DNA of 64,000 nucleotides from Parcubacteria group bacterium Licking1014_17 (GCA_007376485.1 VMGJ01000003.1:81252-145251), one strand, 5' to 3'. Counted from the stretch's first letter, positions 7,273 to 59,873 are shown. Notes: generated by a model not told the origin, from the sequence alone. A program made the numbers and translations.

Positions 7273-8264
7273 AGCAGATTATTTGTATTAGTAATAATCT
7301 CCCTAATTTTGTAAGTATTCCCATGCTTCAATAGCCCAAGATATGAATTGATGGTCTCCGTTCTCGGATTTTCTCTGATTCTTTTCAGCATTCTTCTTTT
7401 TGTCGATGTTCTCAAAATTCTGTGGTCTGGAAAATTAACCCAGCCGAGAAAATCAACTCCTGAAGAAAGGGTTTTAACAAATATCTTCTGGGGATGCAAT
7501 CTTAAATCTAATTCTTGCTTTAAATATTCTCCAATCGGCTGAACAATTTGCTCAAGCCACAATCTATCCTCGGATAAAATCACAAAATCGTCGCAGTATC
7601 TGATGTAATGACGGATTTTTAGTTTGTGTTTAATAAATTGGTCAAATTTATTCATATAAATATTCACAAAAAGCTGCGATGTTAAATTGCCAAGCGGCAA
7701 GCCAATGTCTAAACGGCCCGAATTGAAACTGCCGACAACTTCTTTTAACAGCCAAATAACATTTTCGTCGGAAATATATCCTGAAATGATTTTAAGCAAA
7801 ATCGCATGGTTTATGTTGGCAAAGAATTTCCGGATGTCGCATTTCAAAATCCAGCAGGTTCTTGTATTGTTCCGGCTGACTTTACGCGCGAAATAACGAA
7901 AACGATTCAGAGCTTTGTGAGCGCCTTTATTTAACCGGCAGGAAAAAGAATCGGAAATAAATATTCTATCAAAAAATGGATATAGGATTTTATAAATCGC
8001 GTGGTGCAATAGACGATCTCTGACGCTTGCTTTGTGGATATTTCTCGGCTTCGGGTCGCAGATATTGAATGCCTCATAATTTCCGTGTTTGTATGTATGG
8101 TTTACTAAATCTCGGTGCAATTCCAAAATATTATCCATTAAATTAAACTGGAATTCCTGAACATCCCGCCTATGCCTTTTACCACGTAAAAATTCTTTCC
8201 ATGCTTCCAAAATATTCTCAATGCTGATAATATCTTCAAAACTATGAGCCAATTTGATTTTCAT
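7269..8264 (-). CDS. DGR reverse transcriptase (cassette 1)
   Basis: RT domain with YCDDF (the YxDD box) and LPLGNLTSQ, the [LIV]GxxxSQ motif that separates DGR RTs from group II intron RTs (QGxxxSP). There is an adjacent TR and an Avd-like gene. Confidence 0.85.
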   Translation of the reverse strand: MKIKLAHSFEDIISIENILEAWKEFLRGKRHRRDVQEFQFNLMDNILELHRDLVNHTYKHGNYEAFNICDPKPRNIHKASVRDRLLHHAIYKILYPFFDRIFISDSFSCRLNKGAHKALNRFRYFARKVSRNNTRTCWILKCDIRKFFANINHAILLKIISGYISDENVIWLLKEVVGSFNSGRLDIGLPLGNLTSQLFVNIYMNKFDQFIKHKLKIRHYIRYCDDFVILSEDRLWLEQIVQPIGEYLKQELDLRLHPQKIFVKTLSSGVDFLGWVNFPDHRILRTSTKRRMLKRIRENPRTETINSYLGLLKHGNTYKIREIITNTNNLL

Positions 8265-8648
8265 AAAAACAACCCTTTAAGCCCCCCCCCCAAGATCTTA
8301 CCCTTACTTCAAAAGATAAAAGATATGTATTTATTGTGGTATGAATACTATCAGGTATTACCCAAACCGCATAGATATACTCTCGGTCAAAGAATTGATT
8401 ATTTGCTGGTAGAAATCATAGAAGCAATAGCTACTGCCGCTTTTTTGATGCGTGAAGAAAAAATACCGTATGTTCGTTTGGCAGTCAGGAAAGTTGATGT
8501 TTTGAAAATACTCTTAATGATACTTTGGGAAACCAAATCTCTGGGCGATAAAAAATATATAGCCCTCTCATTAAGAATTGACGGGATAGGCAAAATGCTC
8601 GGCGGTTGGCATGGCCAGCTACAAAAACAAAACTCCCCTGCTAAATAG
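8244..8648 (+). CDS. avd: Avd-like accessory protein (four-helix-bundle / 23S-IVS protein family), divergent from the RT
   Basis: 134 aa carrying HRYTLGQRI...IGKMLGGW, characteristic of the PF05635-type bundle. It starts MSQFDFHKNNPLSPPP, with the PPP encoded by a C10 tract. Confidence 0.8.
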   Translation: MSQFDFHKNNPLSPPPKILPLLQKIKDMYLLWYEYYQVLPKPHRYTLGQRIDYLLVEIIEAIATAAFLMREEKIPYVRLAVRKVDVLKILLMILWETKSLGDKKYIALSLRIDGIGKMLGGWHGQLQKQNSPAK

Positions 8649-8668
8649 CCAGGAGAGAAATGAAGTAA

Positions 8669-8803
8669 TTTGCGACGGGTGAATACCCAGCGGTCGTTGC
8701 CATTCCAGAAGTTATCAGGGTTGCCGTTGTTACCGTTGAGCCACAGGTCATCGTCATTGCGTTCGACGTTGAACACCTTGAGGTTGCCGTCCGAGTCCGT
8801 AAT
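8669..8803 (-). repeat. DGR template repeat TR1
   Basis: 135 bp, identical in register to 9137-9271 except for at least 24 positions. Every one of those is T on the plus strand, that is A in the minus-strand template. In the VR frame it encodes AAC-rich NGNNGNPDNFWNGN. Confidence 0.85.
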
Positions 8804-9057
8804 ATGTACAAGATACCTCCCTTGTCACCACCCCTTGAATACTCTTGGGGTTGTATCGTATTCGGCATCGTAATGCCATAGTATCTTATACCAAGTAGCT
8901 TCATTTTTTGAAGTATCTATATACACCACTCTATCTGAAACCGTAATCGCAGATATTCTCGATGTATGGATACTGGGTTCGGTAGTTGGAAACCTTGGTC
9001 TCCATCATATTCACCTACTGCCGTTTCCATTTTACACGACAAATGCACAAAACAAAA

Positions 9058-9077
9058 CTCGTGCATTTCTGCACGAG
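9058..9077 (-). terminator. 8-bp GC-rich hairpin with a GAAA loop, about 60 nt 3' of VR1 and followed by TTTTGTTTTG. It is either the target-gene terminator or a DGR homing hairpin
   Basis: ctcgtgca-gaaa-tgcacgag on the minus strand. A GC-rich stretch lies between the VR end and the hairpin. Confidence 0.5.
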
Positions 9078-9133
9078 CGGAAGGGCCAAGGGGCCAAGAA
9101 CCAAACGAGGTTCAAGTCCCCAAGGTCAGAGGA

Positions 9134-9799
9134 CTACTTGCGACGGGCGAATACCCAGCGGACGCGGCCAAACCAGAAGACACCAGGGCGGCCGATGCTA
9201 CCGTCGAGCCACAGGTCATCGTCACGGCGTCCGACGTAGAACACCCCGAGGTAGCCGCCCGAGCCCGCAATCGGCTCCATAGCAATCGGGAGCCCCTCGC
9301 CCTTAGGCTGGTCTTTGTATTGCAAACGCAGCTGAGGACCGACTTCGTTGGGGCAGAGCTGGAGACCGAGACTAAGTGCCCGCTCGTAGATGTCCTTGCG
9401 GGTGGCACCGTCTTTGAAGCCAATCTCAGCGACACTGACGTTCACCAGTCCGATTGAGGTTTTCTTGGGGCTTACCTTGAAATCAGGTCCGCCGAGGGTA
9501 TAGTTGCCCCAGTCGCCGATGCGGAAGCCGCCGTTCTTGAGGGCTTCACGGAACTTGCAAGCGTCCGCAAGCCCAGTGCCCAACTTGACGGTCTTCCAGA
9601 TCGGAAAGTTAACCGCTCCGATAACCTGGGGACGCCCGCCATTCTTGAGGAAGGCGGTGAAGCGGCTACCGAACTCGGCGGATGAAAGGTTGATGACTTC
9701 GACCTGGAGCTTGTCTCCATCGAGCTCATCCCAGTTAATCTGGGTTGCGACTCGGGCCGAGATTTCGAGAGCTTGACCGCGTGATACGGCTTTACTCAT
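9134..9799 (-). CDS. DGR variable (target) protein 1. It is cytoplasmic, about 221 aa, with the VR at the C-terminus
   Basis: SD AAAGGAGAAA 7 nt before the ATG (MSKAVSRGQ). The C-terminus ...GRRDDDLWLDGSIGRPGVFWFGRVRWVFARRK is encoded by VR1. Confidence 0.8.
   Translation of the reverse strand: MSKAVSRGQALEISARVATQINWDELDGDKLQVEVINLSSAEFGSRFTAFLKNGGRPQVIGAVNFPIWKTVKLGTGLADACKFREALKNGGFRIGDWGNYTLGGPDFKVSPKKTSIGLVNVSVAEIGFKDGATRKDIYERALSLGLQLCPNEVGPQLRLQYKDQPKGEGLPIAMEPIAGSGGYLGVFYVGRRDDDLWLDGSIGRPGVFWFGRVRWVFARRK
9137..9271 (-). repeat. DGR variable repeat VR1
   Basis: See TR1. The VR runs through the stop codon of the target gene. Confidence 0.85.
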
Positions 9800-9925
9800 T
9801 GTCGTTTCTCCTTTTTCTGCCAGAGGGCTACTATCCGTAGTCATAGCCAGGAAATTCCGATAAATCAGGATCTCCTGGCTATGACTACAATCGCAAGAAG
9901 TATTAAAGAGCGACATTATGTTCTA

Positions 9926-33591: not shown

Positions 33592-34590
33592 CTATATCAT
33601 CGGATTCCCCAAATTGGCAATAATTCCCCTAAGTTTGAAAGTATTCCCATGTTTCAATAGCCCCAAATATGAATTGACAGTTTCTGTTCTCGGATTTGCC
33701 TTGATTCTTTTCAATATTCTTCTTTTTGTTGACGTCCTCAAAATCCTGTGATTTGGGAAAGTAATCCAGCCGAGAAAATCAATGCCCGAAGAAAGAGTCT
33801 TAATAAATATCTTTTGGGGATGCAATCTTAAATTTAATTTTTGTTCCAGATATTCGCTAACTGGTTGGATAATTTGTTCAAGCCATGGCTTATTTTCGGA
33901 CAAAATCACAAAATCATCGCAATATCTTATGTAATAGCGAATTTTCAGTTTGTGTTTAATAAATTGGTCAAATTCATTCATATAGACATTCACCAAAAGC
34001 TGCGAAGTCAGATTGCCGAGCGGCAGACCGATGCCGAAGTAGCCCGAACTGAAACTGCCAATAACTTCCTTTAACAACCAAATAATGTTTTCATCGGGAA
34101 TATATCTTGAAATGATTTTCAATAAAATCGTATGGTTAATATTGGCAAAGAATCTTCGGATGTCGCATTTCAAAACCCAGCAGGTTCTTGTGTTGTTCCG
34201 GCTGACTTTACGCGCAAAATAACGAAAACGATTTATAGCTTTGTGTGTGCCTTTATTTAATCGGCAGGAAAATGAATCGGAAATAAACGTTCTATTAAAA
34301 AATGGATACAATATCCGGTAAACCGCGTGGTGCAACAGCCGGTCACTGACGCTTGCCTTGTGAATATTCCTCGGTTTCGGGTCGCAGATATTGAATGCTT
34401 GATAATCGCCATGCCTATATGTATGATTTACCAAATCTCGGTGTAATTCCAAGATATTGTCCATTAAATTAAACTGGAATTCCTGAACGTCCCGCCTGTG
34501 TCTTTTGCCCCGCAGAAATTCTTTCCATGCTTCCAAAATGTTCTCAATACTGATAATATCTTCAAAATTATGAGCCAATTTGATTTTCAT
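33592..34590 (-). CDS. DGR reverse transcriptase (cassette 2). The ORF track extends it to 34767, but the homologous start is MKIKLAH at 34590
   Basis: About 88 percent aa identity to RT1, with the same YCDDF and LGNLTSQ motifs. Confidence 0.85.
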   Translation of the reverse strand: MKIKLAHNFEDIISIENILEAWKEFLRGKRHRRDVQEFQFNLMDNILELHRDLVNHTYRHGDYQAFNICDPKPRNIHKASVSDRLLHHAVYRILYPFFNRTFISDSFSCRLNKGTHKAINRFRYFARKVSRNNTRTCWVLKCDIRRFFANINHTILLKIISRYIPDENIIWLLKEVIGSFSSGYFGIGLPLGNLTSQLLVNVYMNEFDQFIKHKLKIRYYIRYCDDFVILSENKPWLEQIIQPVSEYLEQKLNLRLHPQKIFIKTLSSGIDFLGWITFPNHRILRTSTKRRILKRIKANPRTETVNSYLGLLKHGNTFKLRGIIANLGNPMI

Positions 34591-34982
34591 AAAAATAGCC
34601 CTATAAGCCCCCCCCCAGGGTTTCGTTGCCGATATTACAAAGGTTGGTTTCGGCATACAAGCTGTGGCATGAACATCTGTCGCATTTTCCCAAAACCTCA
34701 CGATATACGCTCGGCGGGAAAATTGACAGCTATTTTGTAGACGCCGTCGAAGCGATTCACACCGCAAGTTATCTTGGCAAATCAGAGAAACTCCCTTGGA
34801 TCAGGCGCGCGATAACAAAACTTGATGATCTGAAATTCTTTTTGCAAATCGCTTGGGAACTCAAGGTATTGGATAACAAAAAATACATAGCACTTTCCGA
34901 GCCGCTGGCCGAAATTGGCCGAATGCTGGGCGGATGGATGCGGCAAACGGAGTCGGCAAAAACAAAACCGAACCTGTTATAG
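34498..34982 (+). CDS. avd: Avd-like accessory gene (cassette 2). It appears frameshifted at a C9 tract. The N-terminus MSQFDFHKNSPISPPP (frame A) and the body from 34626 (frame -1) are rejoined by one extra C
   Basis: The body carries SRYTLGGKI...IGRMLGGW. The poly-C is at 34608-34616. Confidence 0.7.
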
Positions 34983-35002
34983 GTTCGGAGAAACTTTGCT
35001 TA

Positions 35003-35126
35003 CTTGCGGCGAGCGAGGAACCGGCAGTCGCCGTCCCACTTGTTACCGAGGTAATTGAGGTTCGCGTTCCGCTCGTTGGCGTTCCTGTAGACGTACACGA
35101 CGTTCCGGTTGCCGTTGCGGTCCTGC
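35003..35126 (-). repeat. DGR template repeat TR2
   Basis: At least 17 mismatches to 35478-35602, all at plus-strand T (minus-strand A) positions of the TR. Confidence 0.85.
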
Positions 35127-35384
35127 TGTGTGCACGGTACCATCTATGCCACTATCCTTTGAATACTCTCGGGACTGAATCGTATTTGGGAGCATAACTC
35201 CGCCAGTACCGTACACCAAGTAGCTTTGTTTTTTGAGATACTGTGAAAATCACTGGCCGGAGGCGTACCCACGGCCACTCCGTTTTACGCAGTTCTGGAA
35301 TTCGGCCGTTTGCAGTCGTAACCGCAAACATATCAGCCTATTATCCGTGATTTACTATACTCACTATTTTCAAAAATGAAAGAG

Positions 35385-35420
35385 CGCCTCGTCCGGAAGA
35401 CCCGAACGAGGCGCAAGAGT
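35385..35420 (-). terminator. Hairpin plus T-tract about 65 nt downstream of VR2 (the target 2 terminator, or a homing hairpin)
   Basis: gcgcctcgt...acgaggcgc stem followed by TCTTTCATTTTTG on the minus strand. Confidence 0.45.
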
Positions 35421-35468
35421 CCAAGGCACTCAAGATCTTGAAGACCTGAGCGCGCAAGGACCCAAGGA

Positions 35469-36113
35469 CTACTTCTGCTTGCGGCGAGCGAGGAACCGGC
35501 AGTCGCCGTCCCACTCGCCACCGAGGTAATCGAGGGACGCGCACCGCTCGTCGGCGTGCCTGCAGACGAACACGACGCACCGGCTGCCGTGGCGGTCCTG
35601 CCAGTGCTGGCCGATGGCCGGGATCGGGAACTCCCGCTGGAGCTCCGGCTTCTCGGCGCCGACGGTCAAGTCCTCGTAGGCGTCGGCGGGCTCGAGGTCG
35701 AGCTTCGCCAGCTCGGTGAGCACCTGCTCGTCGCTCATGTCTCGCCCGAAGTGGACGAGGACGAGGTCGCTCTTGACCCTGCCCTTGAGGCGCGGCGGGA
35801 AGTTCTTGGCGTTGACGTTGCCGTTCTTCCAGTCGTACTTCCCACGCTTGAGCAGATCGGCTATGTCCTCGTCGTAGTCGATGACGTGGCAACCGAGCTT
35901 GGTGATCGTGGGGTCAGGGTAGATCGGGGCGAGGCCGAGGACCTTCCGCAGGGCGTTGCGCTCGGGCAACGTTCCCTGCTTCGAAGCCTCAATCACGTCG
36001 GCGACGATTCCGCTATCGAGCAAGTCCGCCTGGAACTTCTCCACAGTCAGTCCCTTGTCGTTGGCAAGCCGGACAACTTCATTTCCTTGGGCGAGCGTCA
36101 CGTTGTTGGCCAT
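35469..36113 (-). CDS. DGR variable (target) protein 2. It is cytoplasmic and 214 aa. The whole gene is markedly GC-rich relative to its neighbours
   Basis: SD GAAAGGAGGG before the ATG. The C-terminus ...CRHADERCASLDYLGGEWDGDCRFLARRKQK is encoded by VR2. Confidence 0.8.
   Translation of the reverse strand: MANNVTLAQGNEVVRLANDKGLTVEKFQADLLDSGIVADVIEASKQGTLPERNALRKVLGLAPIYPDPTITKLGCHVIDYDEDIADLLKRGKYDWKNGNVNAKNFPPRLKGRVKSDLVLVHFGRDMSDEQVLTELAKLDLEPADAYEDLTVGAEKPELQREFPIPAIGQHWQDRHGSRCVVFVCRHADERCASLDYLGGEWDGDCRFLARRKQK
35478..35602 (-). repeat. DGR variable repeat VR2
   Basis: See TR2. Confidence 0.85.
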
Positions 36114-48426: not shown

Positions 48427-48546
48427 ATTGGTCTGGCGGCTACCCACTTTCGCAGTCATACGACCACTATCATAGGCCTTGATGGATTTCACTTCTGAGT
48501 TCGGAATGGGATCAGGTGGGACACCATCGGTATAGTCGCCAAGCCA
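48427..48546 (-). rRNA. rrf: 5S ribosomal RNA
   Basis: The minus strand reads ...CCCACCTGATCCCATTCCGAACTCAGAAGTGAAA... with a helix-I closure. Confidence 0.85.
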
Positions 48547-48983
48547 ATGTTTTTTATTACACGGCAAACAATGTCGCCTTAATGGCAACAGAATAAATTG
48601 GACACTCAACCTTGTAAGGAAATACAGACGATCTATTAGTAACTCTTGGCTCAAAGCCTTGCGGCTCTTACACCTGAGTCCTATCAACGTGGTAGTCTTC
48701 CACGGATCTGCGAAGCCTAATCTTGGGGCCCGTTTCGCGCTTATATGCTTTCAGCGCTTATCGGAACCGAACATAGCTGCCCAGCGCTGCCCTTGGCAGG
48801 ACAACTGGTAGACCAGAGGTTCGTTCATCCCGGTCCTCTCGTACTAGGGACAACCCCCCTCAAGCTTCTAACGCCCACACCAGATAAGGACCAACCTGTC
48901 TCACGACGGTTTGAACCCAGCTCGCGTACCCTTTTAATTGGCGAACAGCCAAACCCTTGGCAGCTTCTTCACCGCCAGGATAG

Positions 48984-49862
48984 GGCGCACATTTATCTTC
49001 TATTACTAGAAGTGCAGACTATATCTTCTCCCGTCTTCCAATCGAAAGGTGGGAGTTGGCGTATTATAGCAGTTAAAAAACTGCTATCCTCTCGCAATAG
49101 CGAGAAAGTCGTTACGGGGTAAGAGAAACTTTATACAATAGACTATCTAAAATATACGGCTTGATGATTTCACAAAACTTTTGCGATGATCTTTCCGGAA
49201 TATATATGTTGAATGTTTTACCCTTTTTATGGATTGCCGCTACGATTCCGAAATTCATCTTCAGACAATCCACTAGCATTTGCTGTTCTTGATACGAAAA
49301 TATATCCGTATTAAGTCTCAGCGCATTACAATCGTTCCGTTTATATCCGTCGTCCATTACCCAAACCGCCAGCGATAATGGTTCAATAAGAATTTCTTGA
49401 ATATTATCAGGAACTATTTTGATTCTATTCTTGTAAAACATATCCCGCCATTCCTGAAATATTCCGTTTGAACATGTCGAGAAATGTAACCGCCTGTATT
49501 CTTTATTCTCTTTCTTGTGGAACGAAGTGATAACTCTGGGCTTACTTGGCACAAGGTTTTTAAATACTTCATATTTCCATAATACATACTCCTTCTGTGC
49601 CATGCCGTGGTCTACTTTTAGACGCACGCCCTTGCCATTTTGCTCCAGATGCCCGTCGCCGAGCATTGTTCCAATTAATATCGCTTTTTGTGTTGCCGTT
49701 AATAGCATACTGTATAAAGCCTCTCCTACTTCCCACGATATTATCCTATCATAGCTGGGTAGCCTCTAATAGGACTCCATCGTTATTAGCCAACGTTGCA
49801 AGTTTATTTCTTAAAAGACACAAACTTGCCAACTCGAATTACTTCGAGTACGGCCCGTTTTG
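48984..49862 (-). mobile_element. Intron-like insertion (putative group I intron) in 23S domain V. It interrupts GATGTCGGCTCA | (T)ATCCTGG and carries a LAGLIDADG gene
   Basis: The exon sequence is contiguous with E. coli-like 23S on both sides, and the boundaries were located by eye. Confidence 0.6.
49112..49708 (-). CDS. LAGLIDADG homing endonuclease (two-motif, monomeric type)
   Basis: [11 protein letters not shown] and [10 protein letters not shown] motifs. Confidence 0.85.
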
Positions 49863-50172
49863 TTGAGCCGACATCGAGGTGCCGAACACTGCCGTCGCTA
49901 TGGACGCTCGGGCAGTACCAGCCTGTTATCCCCGGAGTAGCTTTTATCTGATGATCTTCCCCGTTCCTACGAACAAGGGTCGGTTCACTAACACCTGCTT
50001 TCGCATCTGCTTGACACATCCGTCTCACAGTTAAGCCGGCTTATGCGTTTGCACTATCGCTCCGATTTCCATCCGGAGCTAGCCGACCTTCGTACGCCTC
50101 CGTTACTCTTTAGGAGGCAACAGCCCCAGTTAAACTGCCCGCCAGACACTGTCTTGATGGCACCCTAGAAGG

Positions 50173-50474
50173 GGACGAGTAAACTCGTCCGAGCATCCTG
50201 TAATATTCGTTCAAATATCACAGGATGTTATAGATTATGAGCATTAAAGAATCTAATCTCATTTTTTTGATCGCTGATACAGGTCAGAAAGAGTTTTTCA
50301 TCCCCAAAACAAAAGGGTTGTAAACTCCTGTCGCCTATGTTTTTCAACACCGCATTGGCGACATGTTTCTCTAGATCCGAACTTTCAAAATCAAACTTTA
50401 TCTGCTGTGTTCGGACTTCTGGCCCGCCTTCACATTTATTAAAGTGAAGTTTCAGAAGTATCATTTTATTTCCT
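50173..50474 (-). other. About 300-nt insertion in the terminal loop of a 23S domain-V helix. The arms are ggtggcaccctggaagg and ccttctagggtgcc. It contains an SD-led ORF plus two 3' hairpins
   Basis: The helix arms are perfectly complementary and flank the insert, and the equivalent E. coli helix is a short hairpin. Confidence 0.5.
50228..50464 (-). CDS. Small ORF of 78 aa from the SD-proximal ATG, embedded in the 23S helix-loop insertion
   Basis: GGAAGGAGGAAATAAA-ATG. The ORF ends just before two stable hairpins. No recognisable domain. Confidence 0.4.
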   Translation of the reverse strand: MILLKLHFNKCEGGPEVRTQQIKFDFESSDLEKHVANAVLKNIGDRSLQPFCFGDEKLFLTCISDQKNEIRFFNAHNL

Positions 50475-50770
50475 CCTTCCAGGGTGCCACCAGTTAGAAT
50501 TACAAATGACAAAGATGGGTGTTTCATTGGCGGATCCACGCCTCCCGAAAGAGGCGCTTCAAATCCTCCCCACTACGCTACGCATTGCCGCTCGTAACCC
50601 AATATCAAGCTACAGTAAAGCTTCCGGGGTCTTTCCGTCTTGGTGCGGGTAGTCAGCATCTTTACTGACATTGCATTTTCACCGGGCTAGTGGCTGAGAC
50701 AGTCCCCCAGTCGTTACGCTATTCATGCGCGTGGGAACTTACCCCACAAGGTATTTCGCTACCTTTGGAC

Positions 50771-51522
50771 AGTTCATTCTTTTTATTAGTCTCGGCGGAT
50801 TCAATAAACTCGCCACCGGACAGCCTCATAGTCGCCTATGAGATCGGACTCTATCTTATCGCAATTTTTTGCGATTCTGACGTATTAGTCTCTGGGGATT
50901 CTCGAGATTTTTGGTAATCAGAAAGAGAATATTTTCGCTTCCTGCCCTTACCTTCATTTAACTTCTCTCTTAATTCAATAATTTTTTCAAGACCCTCACG
51001 GGTAAAATGTTTGCCATTCGAGATGGTCTCAACGATTCTTTTGAATATCGAGAAGTTTGTTTTCTTTGAAGATGATAAAAAATTATATCTTTCAAAGAAT
51101 GGCACAATGATATCTCTCAATGAGTTTAGATTATTCACTGAATAATTCCAAACTCCATCTTTTCTTAACTCTAACCTTCCTGCCCCGAAATGTTTTTTCA
51201 TTAACGCCAGGACTGTCTGATCTCTTTGAGCCACATTGAAGGTCAAATAGATTTTCCAGCCAAAGCGGTAGTCATTCCTGGGAATTAACGAAACATTGAA
51301 GCTACCTTCACCATCCACAAAACCGGTAAAATACCAAGCTGTCGAGATGGGAATTTGTTTAATAACTTCTTTCATTTTGTTTAGAGTCTCGAGTCTTTCC
51401 TGCGGATTATCTGCACTGATGTTTTATTACTGATCTTCGACGTTCGGATCTAGTAACATCAGATACTAACCAGACTTTCCCGCATATAGTCAGATTTTAC
51501 AACTACAACTGTCGTTATAGTT
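50771..51522 (-). mobile_element. Intron-like insertion (putative group I intron) in 23S domain IV at the helix-69 region. It interrupts GGTAACTATAACG | GTCCAAAGGTAGCG, near E. coli position 1917, and carries a LAGLIDADG gene
   Basis: Exon junctions were read directly. Confidence 0.6.
50851..51375 (-). CDS. LAGLIDADG homing endonuclease (single-motif, homodimeric type)
   Basis: FTGFVDGEGSF motif. Confidence 0.85.
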   Translation of the reverse strand: MKEVIKQIPISTAWYFTGFVDGEGSFNVSLIPRNDYRFGWKIYLTFNVAQRDQTVLALMKKHFGAGRLELRKDGVWNYSVNNLNSLRDIIVPFFERYNFLSSSKKTNFSIFKRIVETISNGKHFTREGLEKIIELREKLNEGKGRKRKYSLSDYQKSRESPETNTSESQKIAIR

Positions 51523-52554
51523 ACCGCCGTCGTTCACGGGTGCTTCGGGCATCTGCAATGAGCTTGCGCCCACCACTTCAACCGTTAACATTCCCGCACC
51601 GGACAAGCGTCACCCCGTATACATCCTCTTTCGAGTTAGCACGGAGTTGTGTTTTTGATAAACAGTCGCCAGGGGTCTTTCGCTGCGTCCGCGCTTGCGC
51701 GCGGAAGGCCTTATCGCTAACTTACGGCCGCTTTTTTGCCGAGTTCCTTAGCCACTAATCACCCGTTCGCCTTGGTACAATCATACCGGTCCACCTGTTT
51801 CGGTTTTAAATACGTACCCAATCCTTTTGTCTTTAGAAGTTTTTCTTGGAAGCGCGCTCCCTTGAATTTCACCTTGCGATGATTTCCACAACGCTTGGGT
51901 TTCGCACTGAAGCGGCGACACGGATTTGCCAATGTCGCACCCTTACGCCATGAACGCAAATCCTTAATGCGCTCAGGGTACTGCATTTCGTCTCTCCATC
52001 AGAAAGGACCGGGGGGCCGGAATATTAACCGGCTATCCTTCGGCCTCCCCCGCCCGCAAGCGGGGTTATCCTTAGGCACGCCTAACCCTCCGTTGATTGT
52101 CATTGCGGAGGAAATCTTGGACTTTCGGCGAGAGGGGTTTTCACCCTCTTTGCGGTTACTCATCCGAGCATTCTCTCCTCCAAGCGCTCCAGCATGTCTC
52201 ACGGCACACCTTCACTGCGCTTGAAGTGCTCCCCTACCGTATGGAGACTTCGTAAAGGACTTAAGAATAAAAATTCTTAAGAAAAAAAAATGGACGGCGA
52301 GGAAGTAACTATGGTATCCAGGCACCACCAAGGACTTGCCCGGTCCCGGAACCCCACTTTTATACGTGAGGTTCTTAAGTTGGACTTTTAGGGAGCAGTA
52401 GCCATGGTTTAGCGGTCCGCGATAGTTAACTTCCTCGCTTATTTTTCCTTTACGAAATCTCCACACCCACGCATTCGGTACTATGCTTAGCCCCGTTGAA
52501 TTTTCGGCGCATCTTGCCTCGCACGGCCGAAGCCGTGTATCGAATAGTAAGCTG

Positions 52555-52596
<42 letters not shown>

Positions 52597-53227
52597 TATC
52601 TGTCTAAGGCAAAACACTTCCTTCTGTCACTTAGCATAGATTTAGGGACCTTAAGCTGTGGTTAAACGGCTATTCCCGTCGCGACCGTGAAGCTTTGCCC
52701 CCACGGTCTCACTACCGGTCATTACGCCGCGGTATTCAAAGTTTGGTTGATAATCCTACCCAGAGGGCACAGAAAATCATCCAGAGCTTTACCCCCGCGG
52801 TTACTAACCGGCGCTGCCCCTAAAGGCATTTCGGGGAGAACCAGCTATTACCGAGTTCGATTAGCTTTTCACTCCTACCCGCAAGTCATCCGATGATGTT
52901 GCGCTATCAACCAGTTCGGGCCTCCATCCGCCTTTCGGCGAACTTCACCCTGCTCACGGGTAGCTCACCCGGCTTCGGGTCTTTTACAAGCTACGTACAC
53001 ACATATATAAACCGAGGTGCAAACTCACCCGGTTTATATAGATGTGAGTCGCGCTATTAACACTTGGTTTCCCTTTGTCTCCGCCCTGTCGGGCTTAGAC
53101 TTTGCAACTTGTAAAAACTCGCTCGGTCATTCTTCAATAGGCACACCGTCGCCCCTTCGTCTTGCGACGAAAGAGTTCCGGCTCTTTGTAGGCATATGGT
53201 TTCAGTTACTATTTCACTCCCCTCACC

Positions 53228-53270
<43 letters not shown>

Positions 53271-54292
53271 ATCATCAAAAGTATTTAGTCTTGGACCGTA
53301 GTAGGCCCGGATTCACCACGGATAGTCTCGTCCATGGTTACTTAGGTAAAGAGACTTTCGCCTCAATAATACGTAGAGTTCGGAAATTTTCGCTTACGGG
53401 GCTATCACCCTCTTTGGCCGGCCTTTCCAGGACCGTTCTGCTAACCGCCGAATTTGTAACTCTATTTATCTTTGGAGCACAGCTTTCAGCCTCCCATGCC
53501 TCATGGCAGTGGAAGCTGGTCGCCGTGCAGATAATTGTATTATCCCTGCAACACCCGTTTATGTACTTTTAGGTACGAACAGGTTTAGACTATTGCCCCT
53601 TTCGCTCGCCACTACTTGGGGTATCGCGAACAACAAACGCCTGTATGCCTTGCGGCACACGGGTGTTCATTGTTACGTTCGCTTTTTTTTCCTCTGGGTA
53701 CTGAGATGTTTCACTTCCCCAGGTACGCCTCCCGGCTTGCGCCGGAATCACCGCATGTTACTGCAGTGGGGTTTCCCCATTCGGACATCTCCGGATCAAA
53801 GCCCGCTAGACGGCTCCCCGAAGCTTATCGCAGTCACGCCACGTCCTTCATCGCCTTTTGATGTCAAGGCATCCTCCATACGCCCTTGTTATGCATTTCC
53901 TTACAAGGTTGAGTTTCCAATTCCTTGTAGTACTTCCGATACCAAAGCCGCATCTTCTTATACCAGAAGTTCTAATCAGACTTAATTGTTAAAATTCTTG
54001 CCTTTTGCTCCCTGCGGCTGGCTCCTTAAAGAGGCAATCGTAGGAGGCTCTCCTTCGCCGAAAACGTATCATGGCTTCGGGGGAGTGGGCAAATTAGACT
54101 TAAAAACCGCGTCCGGCGCGGCTGTTTTGAATCGCTTCAAGTTAAAAATCAGCACCAGCCGCTTGTTTTTATAAGTCTATTGTATTTGGTATTCATTTGT
54201 CTTTGGTAATTGTAGCAGAACCCAACCTACGGAGTCAATACGTATGTTGATAAGGCGTTGATATCGCTAAGGACATCTTCAGACGGCGCGCC

Positions 54293-54410
54293 CCTCACCA
54301 CTTTTGCCGCCCAGCCAACGATTACTTCCGTTAAAACCTATTGCTGATTGCGCCGTTGGTTTTAAGCTTAAAACCAACGGTAATTTTCTGGCAAAAGTGG
54401 TGGGGGGGGT
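54293..54410. other. Nested inverted-repeat structure about 400 nt upstream of the 23S 5' end. Outer stem ccaccacttttgcc / ggcaaaagtggtgg, inner perfect hairpin ccgttggtttt-aagctt-aaaaccaacgg
   Basis: Read directly. It may be an rRNA leader or processing element. Confidence 0.3.
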
Positions 54411-54425
54411 CAGCGTAAAACTCAA

Positions 54426-55121
54426 CTAATCATTTACATGCTTGCGCAAGTCGCCGATCAACGAATCGGCATGTTCCTTTCCGCCTAACCCAAAGGCAAT
54501 GCCTGCCGCCAACGCGGCGGCGGCGATAATACCCATGATTGCCGTGCGGATAATATCCGTGCCTACTTCAAGTTTCTCCAGAGCGATAAGGAAAGAGAAA
54601 ATCAGCACCGCCCACCTTGCTATAGACCCAAGGAAATTGGCTGACGCCAACTTTGCCGCTTTCATTGAACCGCGCACCAACCCTTCCGCGAACTTGGCGA
54701 CGAGAGCTCCGATAATAAGGACTATCGCCGCTACGAATACATTCGGCAGATAGAGCACGACGGTCTGCAAAAATTCCGTCACCTGATCTAAGCCGAGTAT
54801 ATCAGTGGCAGCCATCAACGATACTATTATGAAGAACCACTTCACCAATTCATAGAAGAATATCGGGCTGTCCAGTTTATATCCGCTCCTGTCCCAAATC
54901 TTTTTGAAGCCGATGCTTTCAAGAATCTTGTCCAGTTGAATTATTCTGACGAGGTGCCAGACAAGCTTCCCGATAATAATGGCGACAATCCAGCCGATTA
55001 TGAAAACCAAAATCGCCGCGATCAGCTGAGGCAGAAAATTCACAACACTGCCCCAAAGACTCGTAAAGGTATCTCTGATTATATCCAAACCACTTGCTCC
55101 GTAACTGTTATACATACTCAC
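54426..55121 (-). CDS. Small polytopic membrane protein with conserved TM-helix repeats (MscS-related / YnaI-like, tentative)
   Basis: 231 aa and about 5 TM helices. Confidence 0.45.
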   Translation of the reverse strand: MSMYNSYGASGLDIIRDTFTSLWGSVVNFLPQLIAAILVFIIGWIVAIIIGKLVWHLVRIIQLDKILESIGFKKIWDRSGYKLDSPIFFYELVKWFFIIVSLMAATDILGLDQVTEFLQTVVLYLPNVFVAAIVLIIGALVAKFAEGLVRGSMKAAKLASANFLGSIARWAVLIFSFLIALEKLEVGTDIIRTAIMGIIAAAALAAGIAFGLGGKEHADSLIGDLRKHVND

Positions 55122-55282: not shown

Positions 55283-57337
55283 TCAAATCAAAAATCTCGC
55301 TATCAGCAGCGCCACGATGTTTGCTACCTTAATCATCGGATTGATCGCCGGTCCCGCCGTGTCTTTGTAGGGGTCGCCGACTGTGTCGCCTGTCACCGCC
55401 GCCTGGTGGGCGGGGGATTTTTTGCCGCCGAAGTTCCCTTCCTCAATATATTTCTTGGCGTTGTCCCAGGCGGCGCCGCCGGAAGTCATTGATATTGCCA
55501 TAAACAAACCGGTGATAATTACGCCAACCAACAGACCACCCAACGCTTGTGGTCCCAGCAGAAAGCCGACAGCGATGGGAATTACGATTGGAATCAAGGC
55601 GGGGATTATCATTTCTTTCAAAGCCGCCCTGGTAACAATATCTACCGCCGCCGCGTAATCGGGTTTTCCCGTCCCCTCCATTATGCCGGCGATTTCCCTG
55701 AACTGCCGGCGCACTTCTTCAACTATCGCGCTACCGGCTTTGCCCACCGCCTTCATCGCCATCGAGCCGAAAAGATAAGGCATCATGCCGCCGATTAATA
55801 AACCGATTAAAACCGAAGGGTTAGTCAAATCAAAACTGATGGGCGCTCCGGCGCCGGCAAATTCTTGGGTGTAAGCCGAAAACAAAACCAGAGCCGCCAG
55901 TCCCGCCGAGCCGATAGCATAACCCTTGGTTACCGCCTTGGTAGTATTACCCACAGCGTCCAACGGATCCGTCGCCTGCCTTACTTCTTCCGGCAGGTTA
56001 GCCATCTCGGCGATGCCGCCGGCGTTATCCGTAATGGGACCGAAAGCGTCAATTGCCAAAACTATCGCCGCCAGCGAAAGCATGCTCAAAGTAGCCAGCG
56101 CCACTCCGTACACGCCGACAAAAATATATGAGCCGAGTATCGCCGCGCAAATCACCACCACCGGCCAGACCGTTGACCGCATGGAAACCGCCAGCCCGGC
56201 GATGATATTTGTGCCGTGCCCGGTCTTGGATGCTTCGGCAATCCCCCGCACCGGTGAGAATTTTTTTGAAGTGTAATAATCCGTAATCCAGAAAATCAAG
56301 CCGGTAACCGCCAGTCCTATTATCAGGGCCAGAAATATTCTATAGCCGGCGATTTCGCCCAGCACCGGTTTCCAGACCAACGTCACGTAAAAAGAAGCGA
56401 CAGCCAGTATCGCTGTAAGAATCAGTCCCTTGTACATTGAACCCATAATACCCCCGTTCGGCCCATTCGATGGACTCAGGGCAGGCAGGCTCGGGGCAAG
56501 CACCTTGGGACCCAATTTTACAACCAGCGAACCTACAATTGACGCCAGCACGCCGATAGCGCCGATAAAAAGCGGAAAGGTAATTATATTCGCGATTGAA
56601 GAATAAAGTAGATTGCCCAGAAGCATTACCGAAATCGTAGAGACCAGATAAGTTTCAAAGACATCCGCCGCCATGCCTGCTGTGTCGCCGACGTTGTCGC
56701 CTACGTTGTCAGCAATGACCGCCGGATTGCGCGGGTCGTCTTCCGGAATTCCGGCCTCAACTTTGCCGACCAAATCCGCGCCGACATCCGCGCCCTTCGT
56801 GTAAATCCCCCCGCCAAGGCGGGCAAAAACCGAAATCAGCGAACCGCCAAAGCCCAAACCAATCAAGGCGGTTACGTCTTTAGTGAACCAATAAAATAAA
56901 GTCAGAACCAGAAGCCCGAGGCCGACCACGAAAAAGCCGGTTACCGCCCCGCCGCGGAAAGCCAGATTGAAAGCGTTGACGATGCCCGATTTTGCCGCTT
57001 CCGCTACCCGCACGTTCGCCCGCACCGCCACAAACATCCCGATATAGCCGGCGAGCGCCGAAGCCGCCGCGCCCACAATAAACCCAATTGCCGTGGTTAC
57101 GCCCAGAAATATATACAGGATTATCGCTACCAAAATGCCGACGACGACTACGACCTTATACTGCCTTTTCAGATAGGCATTCGCTCCTTCGCGGATTGCC
57201 TGCGAGATGGACTTCATCTTTTCATCCCCCTGCGGTTGTTTCAAAACGTTAAGTATCAAAACCGCCCCGTAAACCAGCGCCGCCAGAGCCGACGCCAAAG
57301 AAAAAATTAAAATAGTCATATGGATTAAAACTAACAA
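55283..57337 (-). CDS. hppA: Membrane-bound proton/sodium-translocating pyrophosphatase
   Basis: [14 protein letters not shown] and other V-PPase signature segments, about 16 TM. Confidence 0.9.
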
Positions 57338-58356
57338 ATAGATATCTTTTTTTCCAGTTTTGACTCCATCGCTTTCTGAATATTATAACCGCAACAATGT
57401 TTCAAAACTCCCAGATAAGATTGTAAGTTATCGGTGTTAACTTTTTTCAAAATTCTTCTTCTTGTTTTTGTTCTCAAATTTACGCAGTATGGTCTGACAA
57501 TATAACCCAGAAAATCAATTCCCTGCCGGTATTTTCTAATGATAATTTTTTGCGGATGAAGATTTAATTGTAATATATTATTCAGATAATTGCCGACTAA
57601 AAACGATAATTCGTATAAATAATTTTTATCTTCGCTTAAAATAATAAAATCATCGCAATATCGGAGATAAAATTTCAATTTCAGATGGTGTTTTACAAAC
57701 TCATCCAACTCATTCAAGTATATATTCGCGAATAGCTGGCTTGTCACGTTGCCGAGTGGTAATCCTTTGTCAATATCTTTTTTAAAACTACTAATAATAA
57801 CTCCCAACAGCCAGAGTACGTTTTCGCCGTGAATCTTTCTTTTTATTAGACCAACTAGAATTTCGTGATCTATCGAATCAAAAAATCTCTTGACATCGCA
57901 TTTCAAAGCAAAAATATTCCTGCTGTTGTTTCTGCTCAATTTGCGGCAAAAAGATTTTAATCTCCTGATTCCTCTATACGTGCCTTTTCCCAGCCGACAA
58001 GAATAAGAATCAAAAATAAACCCAGCATCAAAAATTGGATAAAGAATCCTGAAAACGGCGTGATGCAGGATTCTATCTCTAACTGTGGCCTTATGAATGT
58101 GCCGAAGCTTTGGGTCAGTGATGCAAAAAGATTCGTATGGTGAGTGCTGATAAATCTTGGCTGATAGTTGATTGTGTAACCCAAATAGGTTATCTTCCAG
58201 ATTAAATTCGAATTCTAAAATGTCGCGTCTCTTCTTCTTTCCACGCCTAAATTCTTTCCACGCTAAAAACAAATTTTCCAAACTGATTATTTCTCCAAAT
58301 AAATCATGACTCTTATAAGCCCCCCCCCAAAAAAAAACTCCATACCTTTGATTCAT
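57331..58356 (-). CDS. DGR reverse transcriptase (cassette 3). The start is ambiguous, and the ORF as drawn reads through a T9/G9 homopolymer
   Basis: RYCDDFIIL and LPLGNVTSQ motifs. Confidence 0.8.
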
Positions 58357-58671
58357 AGTATTTGCGATTTATACAGGAAAATATATCTTGTCGGACTTAA
58401 AATCCCCAAAAGAGACAGGCTGGGAATTTGCGCAAAAATTGAATCTATATGCCTTGATTTAATAAACTTACTAATTTCAGCCGCTTTTGAATCTAAAGAT
58501 AGGAAATTGTCTTTTCTTACTATTGCTCGTGTTAAAACAGAAATTCTAAAAAGATTGGTCCGGCTTGCGCATGAAATTGACGTAATCAAATCAGTTAATT
58601 ATATAGAATTGGAATCGCAATTGCAGGAAATATCAAAAATGATAAATGGCTGGATCAAATATTTAAAGTGA
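58306..58671 (+). CDS. avd: Avd-like accessory protein (cassette 3)
   Basis: 121 aa, [10 protein letters not shown] encoded by a C9A9 tract, with a C-terminal ...EISKMINGWIKYLK. Confidence 0.8.
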   Translation: MTLISPPPKKNSIPLIHSICDLYRKIYLVGLKIPKRDRLGICAKIESICLDLINLLISAAFESKDRKLSFLTIARVKTEILKRLVRLAHEIDVIKSVNYIELESQLQEISKMINGWIKYLK

Positions 58672-58700
58672 GAAAAACTCCCTAAGGAGTTTTTCTCACA

Positions 58701-58824
58701 AAACTACCTGACGGGCACGGAGGTTGTCGTTGGCATTGCCTGTGTTGTTCCAGTTCACGTTGACCTTGTCATCGCTGTTCCGATACATGTTTGGCACGTC
58801 GCCATCCTTGTTGCGAGAACCCGC
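58701..58824 (-). repeat. DGR template repeat TR3
   Basis: 124 bp at a constant offset of 410 from VR3. At least 20 mismatches, all at plus-strand T positions of the TR. It is AAC-rich in the VR frame. Confidence 0.85.
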
Positions 58825-59034
58825 CTTGGTACCTGACCTCATCTTTCCCACCGAAAATCTTGGAAAAATTTTCTGTGTTGGCTGGCTCCATGGCCAGAAT
58901 TATTCAAGAAACATCTCTAGTTAGAGAATCTTCACCAAGATCAGGCACGTAGTTTCTCTGTTTCAGGCAAACCGCTATCCACTTGGGATCGGTTATAATA
59001 GCCGGGTCTATTCTACAAAAATATAGCAAAAAGA

Positions 59035-59066
59035 GAAAGGCCCGCATCAGTCAGCCACTGCGGGCC
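59035..59066 (-). terminator. Hairpin plus T-tract downstream of target gene 3
   Basis: aggcccgca...tgcgggcct stem followed by TTCTCTTTTTGC on the minus strand. Confidence 0.45.
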
Positions 59067-59102
59067 TTATAAAAAGCGAACGAGAAAAAAGGAATAAGAG
59101 AA

Positions 59103-59873
59103 CTACAGAGAAACTACCTGACGGGCACGGAGGCGGCCGCTGGCAAGGCCTGTGAGGTCCCAGCTCACGTAGACCCTGACATCGCTGCCCCGATACATGA
59201 CAGGCACGACGCCATCCTTGTGGCGAGAACCCGCACATAAAGTTACGTTCTTATTGTCGAGATGGCCACTGGTCTTCCAATTGAACCATCGCCCAAGAAG
59301 AAGCCTTTCAAGAAGATTTATACTATTGATTTTCTTCTCCGCGACCCAACTGGCGGAGAGATTCTTGAGCTCTTCGTCAGCCTCTACGCGGTCACGCGTC
59401 CAGATAACGTAGGGCTTGCCGACGGGCATCCTGACGTTTTTTGTGACGACTTCATCCAAATTAGCATCACAAAATTTCCATTTCTCCGGGAACGAATCGA
59501 AAACCATCTGCATTGTCACACCGGGAACAACCAGCACACCCCAATTAAAACCGGGGGTTACTGGGGGCAGGGGAATTTGCGATGTTTTTCGGATTCTGAT
59601 GTTAAGCGCCTCCTTATAGAAATCCGCCCAGTCCTTCAGGAAGGATTTAACATCCAGCCCCGAGGTGGCATAGGTGATGCCTCCGTTGTCCTGATTAGTG
59701 GCTGTAGTTACGTCACCAACCAGTACGATTTCTGCCTCGCCGCGAAGGGCTTTGAGATGTTGACTGGCAATATTGCCACCACTCAGCTTTTTCACGTCTT
59801 CTGGCGTCCACCCCCCACGCTCAAAAGCGTGATCCAGCTCGGCTGCCTGTCGACTTGTCATAATTGATCCCAT
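59103..59873 (-). CDS. DGR variable (target) protein 3. It is cytoplasmic and 256 aa
   Basis: SD AGGAGA before the ATG. The C-terminus ...GSRHKDGVVPVMYRGSDVRVYVSWDLTGLASGRLRARQVVSL is encoded by VR3. Confidence 0.75.
   Translation of the reverse strand: MGSIMTSRQAAELDHAFERGGWTPEDVKKLSGGNIASQHLKALRGEAEIVLVGDVTTATNQDNGGITYATSGLDVKSFLKDWADFYKEALNIRIRKTSQIPLPPVTPGFNWGVLVVPGVTMQMVFDSFPEKWKFCDANLDEVVTKNVRMPVGKPYVIWTRDRVEADEELKNLSASWVAEKKINSINLLERLLLGRWFNWKTSGHLDNKNVTLCAGSRHKDGVVPVMYRGSDVRVYVSWDLTGLASGRLRARQVVSL
59111..59234 (-). repeat. DGR variable repeat VR3
   Basis: See TR3. Confidence 0.85.

Follow-up and report, generated by a model that had tools for sequence, protein, structure and literature searches.

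Positions 57331–59873 of the 64-kb window (the whole stretch of 64,000 nucleotides that was analysed) contain three genes and a pair of repeats, which, read along the minus strand, lie in the order target gene with the variable repeat (VR), template repeat (TR), avd (carried by the plus strand) and reverse transcriptase (RT) gene. This is the B3 core, TR-(avd)-RT, with avd reversed, and we refer to the locus as DGR3, two further DGRs being present in the window (see below).

The DGR reverse transcriptase (57331–58356, minus strand) is a protein of 341 aa that matches Pfam RVT_1 with E = 4.7e-18. Its best match among solved structures is the Bordetella phage enzyme bRT (8ub7_A, E = 1.2e-43), to which it aligns over residues 17–306, the best group II intron RT reaching 3e-20; in NCBIfam, the models for group II intron, retron and Drt RTs give weak matches, all scoring far below the respective cutoffs. 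The [I/V/L]GxxxSQ motif defined as the signature of DGR RTs (PMC7826257) is present as LGNVTSQ, aligned to IGSLTSQ of bRT, R85 is aligned with R74 of bRT, and the catalytic motif is YCDD. The enzyme shares 51–52% identity with its counterparts in DGR1 and DGR2, and relatives at 47–68% identity occur on environmental metagenome contigs.

The accessory variability determinant, Avd (58306–58671, plus strand, 121 aa), matches Pfam bAvd PF22296 with E = 1.5e-15 and a score of 58 bits against a cutoff of 40, and NCBIfam DivGenRetAVD with E = 1.2e-14 and 54 bits, under the curated cutoff of 80; a phmmer search of PDB with this protein returned only chance matches to kinases. Its gene runs in the opposite direction to the TR and to the genes of RT and target. 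It overlaps the RT gene head to head, the two sharing their first 51 nt with the codons in register.

The target, or variable protein (59103–59873, minus strand), has 256 aa, and its C-terminal domain is predicted to adopt a C-type-lectin/FGE fold, while the N-terminal 70 residues are poorly predicted. The domain carries its own conserved motif, RDRVEADEELKNLSA, and relatives of the family come from Patescibacteria MAGs. Searches of Pfam and NCBIfam with the targets of DGR1, DGR2 and DGR3 gave no matches; the comparison group of CLec proteins also includes the C-terminal domain of Legionella Lcl and the FGE family, and the target of DGR3 matches neither FGE-sulfatase nor DUF1566 of Pfam. Its identity to the solved CLec folds of Treponema TvpA (2y3c), Thermus TaqVP (5vf4) and Bordetella Mtd (1yu0) is 7–15%. 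The initial annotation described a 256-aa target lacking a signal peptide, and the open reading frame is of exactly that length, with no hydrophobic segment or TM segment on simple Kyte–Doolittle hydropathy (used here rather than SignalP): the 19-residue mean reaches at most 1.1, and the 15-residue maximum within the first 60 residues is 0.79.

Template and variable repeats

The TR (58701–58824, minus strand, with the template RNA in minus-strand sense) and the VR (59111–59234, minus strand) align over 124 nt without gaps, at an offset of 410 nt, with 20 mismatches (84% identity). These positions and the constant offset are those given in the initial annotation, as is the claim of at least 20 mismatches confined to TR adenines: all 20 fall at T on the plus strand, that is, at A on the minus strand, which is the coding strand of the target. 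The TR contains 37 A in 124 nt, and 20 randomly placed mismatches would all fall on A with a probability of 2.6e-13. The changes from TR to VR are A>G in nine cases, A>T in seven and A>C in four. Nearly all of the TR adenines (34 of 37) occupy codon positions 1–2, nine codons being AAC, and the VR, which covers codons 214–254 of the target and ends 6 nt ahead of its stop codon, differs from the TR-encoded sequence by 14 changed residues and one silent change. A scan of the 64-kb window with an A-degenerate pattern recovered the TR of DGR3 and its VR, and no further VRs templated by this TR.

The 3' end of the TR (58701–58723, minus strand) is a 23-nt IMH*-like segment with the GC-rich CCTCCGTGCCCGTC at its start. 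In the alignment it is identical over its 23 nt to VR positions 59111–59133, the two adenines inside it being unchanged in the VR, and homology stops 1 nt beyond. Given this identity of IMH and IMH*, the flanking sequence would have to distinguish donor from recipient. DGRs without a difference between IMH and IMH* do exist, according to Wu et al. 2018 (PMC5758913).

Between the TR 3' end and the avd stop codon lies a perfect 14-bp hairpin (58668–58699; GTGAGAAAAACTCC-CTAA-GGAGTTTTTCTCAC), read from the sequence and folded. In 65 of 71 unique related cassettes, a stem of 8 bp or more without interruption lies within 60 nt past the TR; the mean MFE is -18.4, compared with -8.0 in shuffles. Read on the TR strand, TTTTGTTTTTG comes after the hairpin in both DGR1 and DGR2. 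The VR–TR spacer (58825–59110, minus strand, 286 nt) contains a terminator-like hairpin at 59039–59066 (GGCCCGCA...TGCGGGCC), approximately 45 nt downstream of the VR and followed by a T-rich minus-strand tail. A scan for consensus promoters and terminators gave counts not above those in shuffles, with no promoter in the VR–TR spacer or for the TR RNA, and Rfam, run on the whole window, had no match in the DGR region.

A DGR-type RT, an Avd, repeats that differ only at template adenines, a VR in the 3'-terminal part of an open reading frame and a predicted CLec fold are all present. The initial annotation had proposed a full third RT/Avd/TR set, and RVT_1, bAvd and the repeat pair were each recovered. 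The opposite orientation of avd, its 51-nt head-to-head overlap with the RT gene and the location of the adenines on the minus strand go beyond that annotation. The same gene order recurs at 30 of 80 genome loci encoding target homologues, and across 75 related cassettes 1275 of 1348 TR/VR mismatches lie at A. The region 57331–59873 is very probably a complete chromosomal DGR of the CPR type, with architecture B3 of Wu et al. (target-VR ... TR-(avd)-RT), which makes up 90% of their CPR set (PMC5758913). Its anatomy, its homologies and its adenine-only substitution record are directly observed, and DGR3 is an ordinary CPR-type DGR that would rewrite the tip of a small putative binding protein.

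If the Bordetella paradigm, from which we infer the retrohoming steps, applies to DGR3, a minus-strand TR RNA (58824 to 58701), ending in or just past the 14-bp hairpin, would be bound by a complex of RT and Avd, and the RT would copy it into cDNA faithfully except for random bases opposite adenines. The cDNA would then replace the VR (59234 to 59111) in the 3'-terminal part of the target gene, with the invariant IMH-like segment of 23 nt on the 3' side and an identical segment of 12 nt on the 5' side directing the homing. The outcome would be the recoding of up to approximately 20 codons (~10^20 variants) on the C-terminal, putative C-type-lectin-fold domain of a 256-aa target that appears to be cytoplasmic or non-classically exported.

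A homopolymer tract in the RT/avd overlap

Within the coding overlap of RT and avd lies a homopolymer tract, C9A9 on the plus strand (58320–58337) and T9G9 in the RT sense, which encodes PPPKKN in Avd and FFWGG in the RT; its C9 portion (58320–58328) is inside both open reading frames. Runs of C of at least 7 nt occur in the 64-kb window only at the three DGR RT/avd junctions, and a G run of 7–14 nt is found at the equivalent site in 85 related cassettes. The tract is outside the conserved domains of both proteins, since the alignment with bRT begins at residue 17 of the RT and the match to the bAvd profile at residue 19 of Avd.

The length of the tract determines whether the ATG starts of both RT and avd are in frame, and production of RT and Avd would thereby be contingent on tract length, or on slippage at the tract in replication, transcription or translation. 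In DGR3 (G9) both starts are in frame ('ON'). In avd, DGR1 has a tract of C10 and DGR2 one of C9, which leaves the avd of DGR2 one C short; in the subclade of DGR1 and DGR2 the RT starts downstream of the tract, which is kept nonetheless. For 55 of 57 informative cassettes, one and the same change of tract length restores both frames, that of the RT and that of avd; in the other two the changes differ. In-frame tracts account for 11 of 49 unique cassettes (~22%), tracts with one extra G for 29 and tracts with one too few for nine (18%), a non-uniform distribution (chi-square p = 6e-4). The open reading frames are otherwise intact (RT in 45 of 46, avd in 48 of 49), with intact ones in every frame class.

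Differences in length are also seen between close relatives: sister loci have G9 and G10 between flanks of equal length, and the loci L095 and L096 have identical flanks and G10 and G13, respectively. In seven of the eight pairs of near-identical loci the tract has the same length, which means that consensus-level switching is not extremely fast. A further point against the switch is an alternative avd start, TTG, located past the tract. An exact-pattern search of metagenome contigs for near-identical DGR3 junctions carrying other tract-length alleles returned none.

The G/C tract in the RT/avd overlap may therefore act as a slippage-dependent on/off switch of the DGR, a layer added to the ordinary element, in which coupling of the RT and Avd frames is suggested by the comparative sequence data. 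In this widespread lineage of CPR DGRs, a single slip in the shared tract of 7–14 nt would toggle RT and Avd jointly, most populations would be off or attenuated (extra G), DGR3 would be ON and the avd of DGR2 OFF; we consider that this reading has about an even chance of being correct. The slip itself could be a heritable change of DNA length, or a slip of the RNA polymerase or the ribosome.

Three other roles or origins of the tract were considered and set aside. A Shine–Dalgarno sequence for the RT does not fit the position of the tract, which in DGR3 is within the open reading frame and in DGR1 and DGR2 is separated from the ATG by ~20 nt. A G-quadruplex cannot be formed by one run. The out-of-frame relatives do not appear to be decaying pseudogenes, given that their open reading frames are intact and that TR/VR divergence is equal across frame classes.

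Alternative explanations

It is conceivable, if rather unlikely, that the out-of-frame state is the normal template, decoded by programmed recoding, and that the tract is an expression attenuator rather than a heritable DNA switch. In such recoding, ribosomes would slip by +1 or -1 on GGG-G or CCC-C, or RNA polymerase would slip on a run that matches the RNA:DNA hybrid in length. Such a reading accords with the fact that exactly one extra nucleotide is the commonest state (29 of 49), with the downstream open reading frames intact, and with the T9/A9 that adjoins G9/C9 in DGR3; moreover, CCC-C and GGG-G quadruplets and stalling at PPP are contexts prone to +1 shifts. However, with ~22% of the cassettes in frame and 18% needing the opposite shift, a pattern unlike that of an obligatory programmed shift, a programmed +1 frameshift is disfavoured as the sole explanation. 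The 0-frame reads GGG-GCU-UAA, such that, with the last GGG occupying the P site, the A site contains neither a stimulatory stop nor a rare codon, and the length of the tract in the DNA itself differs between sister loci.

The tract might also be a mere by-product of dual coding, its length differences being assembly errors and its regulatory role nil. Gly-Gly-Gly in the RT opposite Pro-Pro-Pro in Avd, in an antiparallel codon register, forces GGG/CCC, and at nearly all loci the RT frames read GGG and the Avd frames PPP; homopolymers are prone to sequencing error, and the equal lengths in seven of the eight near-identical pairs are in keeping with this explanation. Nevertheless we judge it improbable, because a tract outside the conserved domains of both proteins persists in the subclade of DGR1 and DGR2 even though the RT there starts downstream, and because the spread of lengths from 7 to 14, with 78% of unique cassettes out of frame, has a bias unlike that of random miscalls (p = 6e-4). 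The consensus indel error of Illumina data at G9–10 is far below 50%.

DGR3 could, in addition, be an inactive relic, now silent, with the TR/VR differences as a fossil record. A single assembly demonstrates no ongoing homing, in the majority of relatives the tract has an out-of-frame length, and Wu et al. dropped more than half of their candidate DGRs for premature stops or truncations (PMC5758913). Against this doubtful reading, the three open reading frames of DGR3 are intact with both start codons in frame, the catalytic and signature motifs of the RT are intact, and all 20 TR/VR differences are confined to A positions, indicating that the repeats have not undergone ordinary drift since homing last took place. 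Finally, that the repeats arose by chance or duplication beside an unrelated RT (of a group II intron, a retron or a defence system), as the sub-threshold NCBIfam similarities might suggest, is exceedingly improbable in view of the adenine-only mismatches (P about 3e-13), the adjacent Avd, the superiority of bRT as a structural match by more than 20 orders of magnitude and the occurrence of the same arrangement in dozens of relatives.

Comparison with known systems

DGRs of CPR and DPANN organisms were reportedly first surveyed by Paul et al. in 2017. DGR3, whose host is a Parcubacteria MAG, has the same gene order as the CPR/DPANN B3 DGRs, with avd reversed between TR and RT, and we see no structural difference from them. 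Its target, with no recognisable domain, TM segment or signal peptide, likewise resembles those of RT clade 2 of Roux et al. 2021, a Patescibacteria-restricted CPR clade whose targets typically lack both a signal peptide and a recognisable domain (PMC8144416). The RT of DGR3 may belong to this clade, for which its metagenomic relatives and the Patescibacteria origin of the target family give indirect support.

The likeness to Bordetella BPP-1 extends to the IGxxxSQ-type motif, the equivalent of R74, Avd, the adenine-specific differences between TR and VR, the AAC-rich TR codons, the GC-rich start of the IMH-like segment and the position of the VR at the C-terminus of a CLec-fold protein (predicted in the case of DGR3). 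The arrangement is different. In BPP-1 the order is mtd-VR, avd, TR, brt, with the TR between avd and brt, whereas in DGR3 avd is on the opposite strand, in head-to-head overlap with the RT, and the TR is upstream of avd. Where Bordetella has the 'Sp' priming region 3' of the TR, DGR3 has a strong hairpin and then antisense avd, and, unlike those of BPP-1, its IMH-like and IMH*-like 23-nt segments are identical. BPP-1 is a phage, whereas DGR3 is chromosomal in a CPR bacterium and its target is not a tail fibre.

The candidate switch resembles the poly-G/C phase variation of Campylobacter, Neisseria and Bordetella (PMC8355987, PMC1891110, PMC2831843) in being a G/C run of ~8–11 nt near the 5' end of a coding sequence. 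As at contingency loci, the length varies among close relatives and out-of-frame alleles have otherwise intact open reading frames. In contrast to contingency loci, the DGR tract is common to two genes on opposite strands and would control a mutagenesis machine rather than a surface antigen. We found no mention of the tract or of its effect on frame in the part of the DGR literature that we searched.

The proposed linking of RT and Avd expression to slippage offers a concrete, testable hypothesis for the control of DGRs. A DGR is a self-inflicted hypermutator, and the tract, if it is a switch, would give the element a stochastic regulator of its own for targeted hypermutation. The rejection of many CPR DGRs in surveys for 'premature stops' (PMC5758913) would then be explained as well, and pipelines that require intact RT open reading frames may under-count functional CPR DGRs.

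The two further DGRs in the 64-kb window are also real. Their TR/VR pairs, at 8670–8803/9138–9271 and 35003–35126/35478–35601, have 24 of 24 and 16 of 16 mismatches at A, respectively. DGR3 itself is one more example of the known abundance of DGRs in CPR bacteria, and the initial annotation, in calling three DGRs in 64 kb a high density, was right as to both number and density. The density is notable but not unprecedented, because CPR/DPANN genomes with more than one independent DGR locus are on record (Doré et al. 2024, PMC10907252, citing Paul et al. 2017). One small CPR genome can hold several independent cassettes, each for a different small CLec-fold protein. Thiohalocapsa PB-PSB1, with nine loci (Doré et al. 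2024, PMC10907252), likewise has several complete, independent cassettes, each with its own RT, TR and target; there, the RTs are of clade 5, the genome is 7.95 Mb and the targets are fused to conflict-system domains, whereas here the lineage is CPR, with a genome assumed to be small as in CPR, and three loci with small, single-domain targets lie within 52 kb.

Repeat pair and adenine-specific mutagenesis

For DGR3 (57331-59873), the third diversity-generating retroelement of the window, the anatomy and the homologies are established, as is a substitution record that can be explained only by adenine-specific mutagenesis. An ungapped alignment of the template repeat (TR, 58701-58824, minus strand) with the variable repeat (VR, 59111-59234, minus strand) reproduced both the positions and the constant 410-nt offset proposed in the initial annotation, with a sharp loss of homology at both repeat ends. 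The repeats differ at 20 of 124 nt and, as had been claimed, every difference lies at a TR adenine: all 20 are plus-strand thymines of the TR and hence adenines on the strand that encodes the target, the minus strand (P = 2.6e-13 for 20 random positions all hitting one of the 37 adenines in the 124-nt TR). The minus-strand changes from TR to VR comprise nine A>G, seven A>T and four A>C, and a search of the 64 kb with the adenine-degenerate TR pattern gave no match beyond the TR and its own VR, with 0 expected. The adenines fall at codon positions 1 or 2 in 34 of 37 cases, and the TR contains nine AAC codons; the TR- and VR-encoded sequences differ at 14 residues, and some 10^20 protein variants are possible from the template. 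The 3' 23 nt of the two repeats (CCTCCGTGCCCGTCAGGTAGTTT), which have a GC-rich start and are IMH-like, are identical, so that the distinction between donor and recipient would have to rest on flanking sequence; cases of such identity between IMH (the 3' segment of the VR) and IMH* (that of the TR) were described by Wu et al. (PMC5758913).

The reverse transcriptase of DGR3 (RT3, 57331-58356, minus strand) matches RVT_1 (E = 4.7e-18), and no solved structure matches it better than the bRT of the Bordetella phage DGR (8ub7_A, E = 1.2e-43); group II intron RTs reach 3e-20 at best. RT3 shares with this best structural-database counterpart the motif [I/V/L]GxxxSQ, which PMC7826257 defines as the DGR signature (LGNVTSQ in RT3 aligned with IGSLTSQ in bRT), and an arginine opposite bRT R74; its catalytic box is YCDD. 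The accessory protein Avd3 (58306-58671, plus strand) scored 58 bits against the Pfam bAvd profile (cutoff 40) and under the cutoff of the NCBIfam Avd model. The third RT/Avd/TR set that had been annotated is therefore present, with an RVT_1 match, a bAvd match above the Pfam cutoff and a TR/VR pair.

By analogy with the Bordetella paradigm, TR RNA of minus sense would be bound by RT-Avd and reverse-transcribed, random bases being inserted opposite adenines, and the resulting cDNA would then replace the VR. Only in minus sense does the template RNA have adenines at the variable positions, so this must be its orientation, and the TR RNA is consequently convergent with avd.

The target protein and its family

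The target of DGR3 (59103-59873, minus strand), identical in sequence to the protein annotated as CEN90_422, carries the VR at codons 214-254, ending 6 nt before the stop codon. It had been described as a 256-aa protein with no signal peptide; the length was confirmed, and a simple hydropathy test found no hydrophobic segment fit for a signal peptide or transmembrane helix. Neither Pfam nor NCBIfam gave a match. The family to which it belongs has at least 144 members of about 220-280 aa, and those matches that carry a source name all come from Patescibacteria/CPR MAGs or an unclassified 'bacterium'. A strongly conserved core (RDRVEADEELKNLSA ... HLD..N.TLCAGSR) is followed by a C-terminal stretch that differs among members, and the VR is located in that stretch. 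In fold comparisons the predicted structure of the target gave values of 8.5 with the Bd2740 C-terminal domain, 7.6 with an FGE paralogue, 7.3 with Treponema TvpA, 6.7 with Legionella Lcl, 6.0 with Bordetella Mtd and 5.2 with Thermus TaqVP.

Among 80 loci encoding homologues of this target (L001-L080), 44 had neither RT nor avd in the flanks fetched, which extended up to 6 kb, some loci lying at contig ends. Several genomes encode two or three paralogues, with three in tandem in L006. The targets lacking RT and avd may be orphans, may be diversified in trans, or may be paralogues that do not vary. Homologues were also present in records titled as Gammaproteobacteria, Syntrophaceae/Syntrophales or Deltaproteobacteria MAGs (L005, L007, L017, L048, L061 and L066), and among these only L005 has a full avd-RT cassette; the titles probably do not name the true hosts but result from mis-binning or automated mislabelling.

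Architecture and sister elements

On the minus strand DGR3 has the order target/VR, 286-nt spacer, TR, avd (on the opposite strand) and RT, the order that Wu et al. (PMC5758913) term architecture B3, TR-(avd)-RT. An avd on the minus strand and an RT on the plus strand, directly downstream of the target homologue and in the same order, were found in 30 of the 80 genome loci, and in 75 related cassettes, including ones fetched through RT, 1275 of 1348 TR/VR mismatches lie at TR adenines. Together with the literature on CPR DGRs (Wu, Roux, and Doré citing Paul), this order and these relatives make DGR3 an ordinary member of a described lineage, and support its assignment as a DGR of the CPR B3 and putatively clade-2 type in a public MAG. 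Its flanks encode housekeeping functions (H+-pyrophosphatase and RmuC) and show no sign of phage.

The proposal of three DGRs in 64 kb was borne out, the other two being as real as DGR3. DGR1 (7269-9916; TR 8670-8803, VR 9138-9271) and DGR2 (33592-36113; TR 35003-35126, VR 35478-35601) are complete cassettes arranged like DGR3. All their TR/VR mismatches lie at TR adenines, 24 of 24 in DGR1 and 16 of 16 in DGR2, and neither of their targets, of 260 and 214 aa, matches a Pfam family. The RT genes of DGR1 and DGR2 share 81-86% nucleotide identity over repeated segments. RT3 has 51-52% protein identity to each of their products, and the corresponding identities are 27-30% for Avd3 and 17-26% for the target, so DGR3 is no recent copy of either.

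A G/C tract in the RT/avd overlap

The ATG codons of RT3 (58356) and avd3 (58306) define a 51-nt head-to-head overlap in which the codons of the two genes are in register, each start codon being the complement of a conserved His codon in the opposite gene. Within it lies a plus-strand C9A9 tract (58320-58337, C9 at 58320-58328), and the RT/avd junctions of DGR1 and DGR2 carry C10 (8282-8291) and C9 (34608-34616). C runs of at least 7 nt occur in the 64 kb only at these three junctions. The sole other G/C run of this length on either strand away from the junctions is a G8 run (54402-54409) just past the 3' end of an ORF at 54426-55121 (minus strand).

RT and avd of DGR3 are both in frame, as is avd1 (C10) with its own ATG. 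In DGR2 the C9 tract shifts avd (34570-34982, plus strand) out of the frame set by its conserved ATG at 34570; as assembled, the only start available to it is a TTG at 34626, after the tract, and addition of one C gives a full Avd (MSQFDFHKNSPISPPPRVSLPILQ...) collinear with that of its close paralogue Avd1. The RTs of DGR1 and DGR2 each begin at a separate ATG (MKIKLAH) beyond the tract, so that avd alone depends on the tract in these two elements.

We found the tract to be widespread among relatives. RT matches were obtained at 114 related loci, 96 with an avd match beside the RT, and 85 of the 96 have a G run (in the RT sense) of at least 6 nt at the equivalent position, measuring 7 nt in six loci, 8 in nine, 9 in 36, 10 in 23, 11 in seven and 12-14 in four. 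When tract length was changed in silico, the same length put the RT and avd ATGs in frame in 55 cassettes, and different lengths in two. Once duplicates were removed, 49 cassettes were left, of which 11 are in frame as assembled, 29 have one G extra and nine are one G short (chi-square p = 6e-4). Three pairs of sister loci with flanks of equal length differ by one G (G9 and G10 in L081 and L026, L082 and L088, and L053 and L044), and L095 (G10) and L096 (G13), on contigs from different samples, have 200-nt flanks that are 100% identical on both sides; seven other near-identical pairs have equal tract lengths.

G/C tracts of 8-11 nt classically undergo phase variation, and we consider the chances even that DNA-level phase variation and/or rescue by polymerase or ribosome slippage, taken jointly, operates at this tract. 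Should slippage rescue the frame, the tract would be an expression attenuator rather than a switch, and that reading still stands.

Assembly error also stands as an explanation of the tract-length differences. At the RT/avd junction of L057 (about 1960-2002), runs of C15 and G11 and an N block adjoin one another, apparently an assembly fault located precisely at the tract and a sign that assemblers have difficulty there. A dual-coding constraint, with the tract a by-product of encoding Gly3 and Pro3 on opposite strands, is a weak explanation, because the tract lies outside the conserved domains (RT residue 17 is the first to align with bRT, and Avd residue 19 the first covered by the bAvd profile) and persists where the RT starts beyond it. 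The out-of-frame cassettes are not in decay: in 45 of 46 cassettes the RT ORF beyond the tract reaches 300 aa or more, in 48 of 49 avd reaches 95 aa or more, and TR/VR divergence is alike in the three frame classes (about 15%, at least 96% of it at A).

With phase variation or slippage, the shared homopolymer provides a concrete hypothesis for the gating of DGR activity, testable on presumably public reads. In the searchable literature no mention of a tract in the RT/avd overlap was found; Wu et al. (PMC5758913) discarded over half of their candidate DGRs for premature stops or truncations.

Hairpin beside the template repeat

The avd stop codon and the TR 3' end are separated by a perfect 14-bp hairpin (58668-58699), identified by sequence inspection and folding, that takes up the whole interval. 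At the equivalent site 65 of 71 unique relatives have a stem of at least 8 bp, the mean MFE in the unique relatives being -18.4 kcal/mol, compared with -8.0 kcal/mol in shuffles; the structure is conserved and the sequence is not. In DGR1 and DGR2 the TR strand reads TTTTGTTTTTG after the hairpin. The hairpin may mark where the TR RNA ends on its 3' side, or it may act as a bidirectional terminator or in priming; more speculatively, it might correspond to the Bordetella 'Sp' region.

Other RNA features of the window

The 23S rRNA gene (48616-53900, minus strand) measures 5285 nt against a 2925-nt model, and its insertions contain two LAGLIDADG homing-endonuclease ORFs (49112-49708 and 50851-51375); CPR bacteria are known to carry such rRNA insertions. 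A 5S rRNA lies at 48431-48543. The bacterial class A RNase P RNA (3915-4389, minus strand) gave a match of 475 nt to a 367-position model, implying insertions here as well.
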